Part shown: positions 29,001 to 32,000 of the stretch, one piece after another
How positions within the stretch are numbered: the stretch's first letter is position 1
Layout of the letters: the number at the start of each line of letters is the position of its first letter
From: Octopus vulgaris
Lineage: Eukaryota
DNA length: 64,000 bases
Assembly (NCBI GenBank): GCA_951406725.2
Contig: OX597833.1
Location: 61,504,001-61,568,000, forward strand
Direction: 5' to 3'
Notes under the pieces: generated by a model
What the model was told of the DNA's origin: nothing
The model's database searches: none
The model's input: the letters and a program-made list of their open reading frames with translations, nothing else
Program-made: the position numbers and the translations under genes

Positions 29001-32000
29001 TTTCTCCCTGCATACCGAGAGGGTTGTCTTCATTGAGCTCTTCGTTCCACTTTTCTTCAAGGAAGTAATTAGTAAGAGAGGAGACATTACTCATACACTG
29101 TAATGGAAGGAGAACAAAAACAATGCATCAACACACCACTTCTTCTTTTAATACAAATTTTAAACTTATTCAATGAAGGGATTATTTGGTCCTCTAGTAT
29201 TTAAGCTGGCCAGATCCAGTCTCTCACACCTATCCTACAATGTCATTCTAAAGATAATCGCATCAAAACCTCACAGCTACAAGATAATGCAAGGTTAATT
29301 TGTCTACAGCATTTTCATAAGTTTGTCCTAGACATCTATGCTTGTTTGCAAACTTTTACTTCACCCATGTTTCATACGTTCCAAATAATATAAAACTTTC
29401 CTTCAATCTTTTCGGTTTGAACGGCAGTTTTTAACATAATTTCTAGGTAACTAAACACTTTTAAACTTCGTATACTGGTAGAATGTGTTTATAAAGCATT
29501 TTTTCTCTTGGCTTTATTGAGAAAATTCTATAGTTTGTAAGATATTTGTTGTTGTTTTTCTTCAATTTCTGCAATTTCAACCAATCACTGACGTCTATTG
29601 AGGTAAAAAAAAAAACATTCTGTGCCATATGAATATGTCCCTCGTTTAAGAAACAGATTGGGTTTATTAACATTTCTGAAGAGAAAAAGATACCCTTCCC
29701 CCCACCCCTAACCAACCCTAACCCTAAAACAGATTGAAATGCAATAGATCAATACTAGGGTCATAATTATGGGTGACAATTTCATATGACACCGCTAGAA
29801 AAAAACTGCTGTTCAAACCAAAAAGATCCCTTTCCTTTCCTAAGTTCCAAGTTACTCTAGTAACCCTTGGACGGTTTTGAATGACCATAGAAAGTGCAAG
29901 CCCACTAACTGAAAAACTGTGGATTTGTATAAAGGACACACAGACAGACAGACATTTGTCGTTTATATATAGAGATGACTGGTACGTAGTAAAATTTGTG
30001 ACCCACCCCACTGTATTTAATTTATTCAATAGGACCTTGAGAGAAAAATATTTCATTTCTTCTCAAAAAATGACTTAAAAAACATTAAAATATCCATCAA
30101 TCCATGTACATGATTTTAGGAGTAAAAAAAAAAAAAAGTTATTCTAATGAACGACAGGTGTTAACTTGTTTTAATTTTCATATTAATTATTAATACACTC
30201 CTCCTTCATAAGATGTTAATATTTACCTGAAGGGCAGAATTCATAAAACACGTGTTCCCAAGGTTAGACAATCCACAGAGACCAGGCACCGCTTTGGATA
30301 CCAAAGAAATGTCCAGTGTATCACGAGACACACAGCACATGCGAAGAGTTAACAATAATGTGAATAAATAAGAACTGTATTTGACAGTAATCTGAATGTT
30401 CAAATGTCAAAAGATTTCTTTCAAACAAAGTGGATTATTATTAAAAACTAGCACTATGACCCGGCAATGCTGGGTCATAGTGCTAGTGCATGCATATACA
30501 GCTGCGTGCGCACATACACGTGAGTACTGTCCAAATCTCTGACCAATCACATACAGCTAGCTAGCATTCAATTGGTGTATCAAGTTTTGGGCATTTTGAT
30601 TGGGTTTTGGATAGAAGATTCACAAAAAAGTCACTTCTATTGATTTTTTAATGGCTTTGCGGGGTGACTGGGAAAATGTAAGGATGTACACGACCACCCT
30701 TGGACGGTTTTGAATGACCATAGAAAGTGCAAGCCCACTAACTGAAAAACTGTGGATTTGTATAAAGGACACACAGACAGACAGACATTTGTCGTTTATA
30801 TATAGAGATGACTGGTACGTAGTAAAATTTGTGACCCACCCCACTGTATTTAATTTATTCAATAGGACCTTGAGAGAAAAATATTTCATTTCTTCTCAAA
30901 AAATGACTTAAAAAACATTAAAATATCCATCAATCCATGTACATGATTTTAGGAGTAAAAAAAAAAAAAAAGTTATTCTAATGAACGACAGGTGTTAACT
31001 TGTTTTAATTTTCATATTAATTATTAATACACTCCTCCTTCATAAGATGTTAATATTTACCTGAAGGGCAGAATTCATAAAACACGTGTTCCCAAGGTTA
31101 GACAATCCACAGAGACCAGGCACCGCTTGCGATCGACCAGATTCATTGTTGTAGCACCCATACGAGCTATAATTTCCATCGTGGGGGCTGTAGCTATATG
31201 CAGAAGACCTGAAGACAAGAAGTTAATAATGTTAAGTAATGTGGTTAAAGTTTATTTAAATTAAACAATAAAAGTACAGTGAGAAAAAATAAGCCTACCT
31301 TGTAGATATATAAGGCTGTCTTTCGATAGGGGTACTGCTAGCATTGTAAGAACTGGTACTGTAATGAAAAAAATATACATATATCATCACAGTGCCGTCA
31401 ACAGAGAGACATGTTTAACTGGGGGGTTCTCTTGTAAGGGAGATAATCGTGCCTAAGCTATTTTCTATTTGTTTAGAATAGTCCAGTTGCATATATTTCT
31501 AGAAAGTGGCTAGGTTTTTCAATCTATTCTTTTAAAGCAAAAAAGGTTTCTTTTTAAGTAAATGAGAAAGGCCCATCAGTACTAAGCTATTGTTGACCAA
31601 ACCCCTTATACTAACATGGAATAAAACTGATAAAACAGTTACACTCACGAGGTGGTTGGCATTAGGAAAGGCATCCAGCTGTAGAAACACTGCCAGATCA
31701 GACTGGAGCCTGGTGCAGCCTCCTGGCTTCCCAGACCCTGGTCGATCCATCCAACCTGTGCTAGCACGGAAAACGGACGTTAAACGATGATGATGGTGAT
31801 ATCATCACCATATTTTCCATACTTGCATGAGCCAGACAGAGTTTATTTAGGTGGTTTTTCCACAGTTGGATGCCCTTCCTGTTGCCAACCCTCACTCATT
31901 TCCAAGCAAAGTAATATTTCCCTATGACCAGGAATATTTCCACAGAATATTGGAAATGACTTGACATTGCTTGTATGACAGTGACATGACTTTCACCACG

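Follow-up and report, generated by a model that had tools for sequence, protein, structure and literature searches.

Host gene and organization of the locus

The window analysed here, a stretch of 64,000 nucleotides from Octopus vulgaris, carries on its minus strand 22 exons of a gene in which a DUSP domain is followed by a UCH catalytic domain, the arrangement that marks the USP4/11/15 family. Exon pieces match the Pfam DUSP and UCH profiles as well as structures of human USP15, USP4 and USP11; the DUSP match lies above its cut-off, and the UCH pieces score 18–23 bits, under the whole-protein cut-off of 23.9. When these exons are joined to exon 1, found beyond the window in L031, the spliced model encodes 1046 amino acids and is identical to P0123, a protein named USP15 by its sources, from O. 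vulgaris and O. sinensis. The same model confirms the exon numbering (exons 8 and 9) of a preliminary description of this DNA. Exon 1 lies ~13 kb past the right end of the window, with an intron 1 of ~21 kb and a gene span of ~69 kb. No close USP15 paralogue was found in genome assembly G000, where the next-best match to exon 11 is 55% identical. Ov-USP15 has been put forward as a stable reference candidate in brain, with an expression CV of 1.29% (PMC10230085).

Exon 8 (31061–31208, minus strand), identified by the spliced model and by structure and profile matches, ends with the Cys box, whose codons surround the catalytic cysteine, and exon 9 (28924–29097, minus strand) begins in phase 0. 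Exon 8 and the whole 1046-aa frame are intact. An annotated isoform, P0126, has a different C-terminus after residue 989 (RNMAERRKKHKKH...), which a minus-strand search did not find in the window; its tail implies a donor within the last exon (8000–7719) and another exon outside the window. A minisatellite of 20.8 units of 28 nt occupies 9019–9599 in intron 21, and two further minisatellites, at 25461–25797 and 48928–49332 (68-nt and 129-nt units), lie within a dispersed repeat family.

Between exons 8 and 9, a single intron packs four repeat families and the copy described below into 1.6 kb (29200–30808), some nested in one another and others side by side. Repeat A (left part 29200–29300; right part 30354–30412, plus strand) is split by repeat B, which is therefore nested in it. 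Repeat B, recognized on the plus strand by repeat comparison (left part, 29300–29403) and by repeat family alignment (middle piece, 29830–29862; right end, 30295–30352), is itself interrupted by a high-copy, MITE-like inverted-repeat element C (29406–29829, no strand assigned) and by the copy, and its halves are in register on both sides of the latter. Element C ends 33 nt from the breakpoint. Helitrons are recognized by a 5' TC, a 3' CTAG, an A/T target and a 3' hairpin, and all of these are found in a non-autonomous Helitron-like element at 30448–30808 (minus strand), with a 41-nt terminal hairpin. Its A/TC and CTAG/T ends recur in four of four fetched copies. The preliminary description had placed a Helitron about 110 bp upstream of an in-frame ATG, and the element's end at 30448 is indeed 108 nt upstream of it. 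A second, older copy of the same family (88%), with decayed ends, is present in intron 3 (37673–38038). This layout gives the order of arrival as A, then B, then element C and the copy, the Helitron-like element being older than the copy.

A probably recent local copy of the exon 8 edge

Global alignment of the segment at 29863–30294 (432 nt, minus strand) with 30696–31128 (433 nt, minus strand) gives no substitutions and a single indel, one extra A in a poly-A run of the latter, so the near-exact duplication reported earlier between these intervals is borne out. Identity over 432 nt is far beyond chance. We refer to the first segment as the copy and to the second as the source; they have the same orientation and lie 401 nt apart. 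The copy takes in the 3'-most 68 nt of exon 8 with the Cys box (30227–30294), the donor of that exon (GT at 30226–30225), 252 intronic nt and, from the Helitron-like element, the initial 113 nt; the duplicate thus ends, as had been noted, inside a copy of the Helitron's 5' end. In G000, its non-repeat part (29976–30294) matches at two places and no more, namely the copy itself and the source. Zero substitutions place their divergence below 0.7% (95% bound), which suggests that the copy is likely to be recent.

The contigs of four DNA sequencing runs (X1, X2, X5 and X7) were aligned to 28850–30695 at 90% likeness. In X1, from organism A, a contig at depth 53.6 covers 30265–30415 with no differences and crosses the 30294/30295 junction, its shorter arm there being 30 letters where the bridging rule asks for 31. 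Another X1 contig breaks off precisely at 30294. A third, at depth ~53, is implied over 30265–30294 by bin arithmetic and is presumably the source branch. The X1 contigs therefore show two continuations from 30294 in the reads, the pattern of a copy and its source. The shared contig has a depth of 66.7, or 1.26 times that of either branch rather than twice, which fits one or two carrier haplotypes. X1 may be the sample behind the assembly.

A different picture was obtained for X2, which comes from organism A in another sample and study. Here a 904-nt contig runs unbroken through the point corresponding to 30294 into 536 other letters. Its depth is 14.8, compared with 22.1 for exon 9, whereas a second copy would raise the depth. 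Assemblers prune contigs beside repeats, and such pruning could mimic an unbroken contig; X2 is nonetheless likely to be without the copy. It has zero cover over 30295–30337, so that no empty allele is in view. The two runs from other organisms, X5 and X7, leave 30152–30275 uncovered and hence are silent on age. The joints at 29347–29830 and 29976–30447 are present in all four runs and probably derive from other loci.

These data bear on a false local duplication introduced during assembly. Near-perfect identity with a homopolymer difference alone is what an artefact might look like, as are the missing branch in X2 and the X1 shared segment at less than twice the branch depth. In addition, the 29862/29863 region is swamped by high-copy repeats in the run contigs, and junction support is confined to 30294/30295 in X1. 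However, X1 offers a continuous, mismatch-free path over that junction with a branch exactly there, and the copy is not in tandem with its source: it stands in place of ~39 nt of repeat B while the two parts of that repeat keep their register, which is unexpected from a collapse or expansion error. We therefore regard an artefact as extremely improbable. The preliminary description had left the choice between a very recent event and an assembly error, and it is recency that stands, given the zero substitutions and the likely absence of the copy from X2, whereas the X1 contigs speak against error. By the same evidence, the copy is probably polymorphic.

Target site and origin of the copy

We compared the flanks of the copy with fetched family members of repeat B. 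In nine of 11 of these, the sequences that flank the copy lie 29–45 nt apart (median 39); the two dropped from the count are truncated (L010) or have an unaligned right end (L014). We infer that the copy replaced ~39 nt of repeat B, or that part of this loss predates the event. No target-site duplication (4–15 nt) and no poly-A tail were found at the edges, and comparison with the family copies revealed no microhomology at the breakpoints and at most 1 nt of filler. The right flank, 30295–30352, aligns to five of the 11 family copies with 39–44 matches in 55–58 columns. This sequence had been described as new, but it belongs to an old repeat, whose right end it forms.

Several routes to such a copy were rejected. 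Retroposition is contradicted by the lack of a poly-A tail and of a target-site duplication, and by the intron contained in the copy, and tandem duplication by the anatomy of the junctions. Given that the copy ends 113 nt inside the 5' end of the Helitron-like element and landed 153 nt past its 3' end, capture by the element or an aborted rolling-circle event was also considered. Rolling-circle copying takes the DNA between an element's 5' TC and 3' CTAG ends. However, 320 of the 433 nt of the source lie upstream of the TC start and so outside that range, the copy has no CTAG end and is not bounded by the element's termini, and the target is not an A/T site. Helitron gene capture is rejected on these grounds, Helitron-driven capture or an aborted rolling-circle event is together exceedingly unlikely, and the element is most likely a bystander; transposase nicking may still have supplied the break.

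An interrupted repeat, no target-site duplication or poly-A tail, and a single donor 401 nt away are together the marks of a proximal repair-mediated duplication. Under this reading, a germline break would have opened in repeat B and ~39 nt of the repeat would have been lost at it. One end would then have copied 432 nt from a template 0.4–0.8 kb away, in the manner of synthesis-dependent strand annealing, before being rejoined, leaving the source intact. We consider it probable that the 432-nt segment is a local copy made by DNA-break repair within a split repeat, that it is recent and polymorphic, and that splicing bypasses it, the gene still yielding normal USP15.

Splicing potential of the copied donor

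A copied half-exon with its donor could in principle alter splicing of the host gene. Splice-site models were built from USP15's own 22 acceptors and 21 donors. The copied donor has the top score of 3058 intronic GT sites, under a donor model that includes the identical donor of exon 8, and scores 9.4 bits in a leave-one-out test. The nearest useful acceptors among the 33 AGs between the two donors are an AAG at 30293–30292 (2.2 bits) and an in-frame CAG before 30391 (2.7 bits), the latter overlooked in the preliminary description. The 22 true acceptors score 5.3–14.8 bits; CAG or TAG closes 21 of them and AAG the remaining one, and 11–12% of 2601 intronic AGs outscore the two candidates. Three AGs do fall in the range of true acceptors (30906, 30894 and 30667), and these would yield exons of 441–680 nt with early stops. 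The copy thus brings a strong donor but no good acceptor and no promoter, so that an exon would not be defined and the copy is likely silent. The pairing of exon 8's own acceptor and donor would continue to define that exon, which would be joined to exon 9.

Use of the AAG would create a 65-nt frameshifting exon (30227–30291, minus strand), as claimed previously, with a stop after 16 new residues. At a low level, this poison exon or decoy donor would send transcripts to degradation and mildly lower the USP15 dose in carriers. The strength of the donor favours this possibility, and the longest frame of the poison transcript is, letter for letter, the annotated P0124 (CAI9737947.1), a 758-aa USP15 isoform that starts with MNSALQ after the catalytic cysteine. 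Against it, the AAG scores below all 22 true acceptors, and P0124 is reproduced by eight of 21 transcript models, six of which are without the copy: retention of intron 5, retention of the 90-nt intron 7, skipping of exon 5 and three 5' truncations. P0124 was accordingly rejected as transcript evidence for the copy, being non-specific; it is a lead. Of the decoy or poison exon suggested earlier, the strong donor holds, the acceptors are weak, and P0124 is compatible without being specific, which makes such an exon unlikely, though possible at a low level. Retention of the short intron 7 (31298–31209) is one simple origin for P0124. In a computational model in which exon 8 is skipped and exon 7 is joined to the AAG of the copy, an 805-aa frame results that starts at an out-of-frame ATG and retains an intact Cys box.

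Potential for new protein products

Two new proteins could be read from the copy on paper. A start in or near the Helitron-like element would give a 790-aa core-only enzyme, and the CAG at 30391 would define a 165-nt in-frame cassette (30227–30391, minus strand), whose inclusion would yield 1101 aa and a duplicated Cys box. Each frame stays open across exon 9 and runs on to the usual stop. The ATG at 30340 (30338–30340, minus strand) lies in frame at 114 nt from the donor, in phase 0, exactly as first described, and no ATG occurs between 30477 and 30340. Moreover, the solved catalytic constructs of USP15 and USP4 (7r2g, 6gh9, 2y6e) start 2–4 residues before the same PGLCG, so that a core-only octopus product could fold and work, if made, and human USP15 is still about one-third as active when its DUSP-Ubl is removed (PMC4243247).

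The origin of this ATG argues otherwise. Because repeat B supplies 30295–30352 as its right end, the ATG and its surroundings are decayed repeat sequence older than the copy, and its context is weak (C at −3, T at +4). When the copy was pasted at 20,000 random intron positions, an in-frame ATG preceded the first stop in 18.5% of cases, an in-frame CAG was found in 18.4%, and at least 37 open codons in 11.8%. The in-frame ATG is therefore not beyond chance. Nine ATGs lie upstream of 30340 within the Helitron-like element, which matters if transcription starts at its 5' end. Neither an MCCVSR start nor two Cys boxes were found in any of the six proteins of the octopus cluster. A protein search with the 66-codon open frame returned two matches among 1748 candidates, missed even octopus USP15 and is uninformative. 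The copy is also too young for selection to be visible. The alternative first exon for a core-only enzyme raised in the preliminary description thus finds no support, and we hold a new protein of either kind to be highly improbable.

A bolder proposal is that an exon has been caught at birth, the segregating copy being already used as a Helitron-driven first exon (790 aa) or as the 165-nt cassette (1101 aa), with a start codon and an acceptor that would both come from decayed repeats. This is only marginally less improbable. If carriers do use the copy, they and non-carriers would provide a ready test of exon birth with a natural control.

Frequency and significance

A single close USP15 copy was found in G000, and it is the catalytic exon of this gene that the duplication involves. 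Its background was assessed by scanning 80 stretches of 10 kb (799,900 bases), 20 of which flank the window and 60 of which lie at round coordinates, for direct spaced pairs of at least 100 nt and at least 97% identity. Among 28 pairs, one is the USP15 copy itself, 18 are microsatellites, two lie in larger repeats (L045, L046), three are doubtful (a TA-rich one in L065 and two in L062 that have the same offset) and four were kept. The kept pairs, of 176 nt (L050:302–477/4567–4742), 134 nt (L060:6596–6729/8433–8566), 374 nt (L063:8548–8921/9108–9481) and 302 nt (L065:4375–4672/5763–6064), are spaced, sharp-edged and 97.7–99.5% identical.

These pairs are candidates for the same repair class and suggest that it occurs frequently in the genome, although some may be young transposon copies. 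At least four pairs in 0.8 Mb, or ~5 per Mb, would scale to more than ten thousand across 2.8 Gb, provided that the sampled stretches are typical, and it is inevitable that an exon edge falls within some such local copies. As it stands, the USP15 copy is an ordinary local duplication, probably among thousands in the octopus genome, and of little importance: a young, probably polymorphic and likely inert intronic variant.

Comparison with known systems

Literature titles on repair-mediated duplication and on Octopus USP15 included none on this variant. The closest known class is that of Pace, Sen, Batzer and Feschotte (2009), who identified 824 proximal repair-mediated duplications (RDs) in the human genome through interrupted transposons (PMC2671141). 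Their signature is one donor within 5 kb, a length of 50–619 bp, no poly-A, and a deletion, filler or microhomology at the breakpoints. Introns are the acceptors of 295 of the 824; four donors are partial exons with intron and two are whole exons, and neither copy of the latter is under detectable constraint. One human-specific RD is polymorphic. RDs can thus copy partial exons with their splice sites into adjacent introns, with target deletions of 1–15 nt in Table 1 of that paper.

The octopus copy resembles these RDs closely. It interrupts an in-register repeat by more than 50 bp (nine of 11 B copies join both flanks), has a single near donor at a distance of 401 nt, between the limits of 50 bp and 5 kb, stays under 619 bp (432 nt) and lacks a poly-A or poly-T tail; like them, it splits a transposon without a target-site duplication, and a target deletion is probable. 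It differs in its probable deletion of ~39 nt, larger than the RD values (PMC2671141), and in the lack of microhomology. The 29–45 nt range of this deletion, estimated from family copies, is slightly above the 30-bp search tolerance of the human study. RDs were described in vertebrates, and the word "invertebrate" is absent from the main text of PMC2671141, whereas the octopus is a mollusc.

Similar patches are seen elsewhere. Induced breaks in Arabidopsis acquired inserts of 80, 328 and 534 nt from flanking DNA (PMC3289645), copied, like the octopus copy, from sequence adjoining the break; those events are experimental and somatic and occur in a plant, whereas the octopus copy is a natural germline variant. 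Class 2 templated sequence insertion polymorphisms (TSIPs; PMC5110952) also share a patch at a break, a microdeletion, an intact donor and polymorphism, but they have distant donors and are proposed to arise via RNA, whereas the octopus donor is 401 nt off and includes unspliced intron, so that assignment to class 2 was rejected. The retroposed class 1 was likewise rejected, the copy having no target-site duplication, poly-A tail or TTTT/A target. At the protein level, the first residue of the hypothetical 790-aa octopus product would almost coincide with that of the human USP15 and USP4 core constructs (7r2g, 6gh9, 2y6e; PMC4243247), which are engineered proteins. Of these systems, RDs offer the nearest likeness, and the copy in USP15 would provide a clean example, in a mollusc, of a class defined in vertebrates (PMC2671141).
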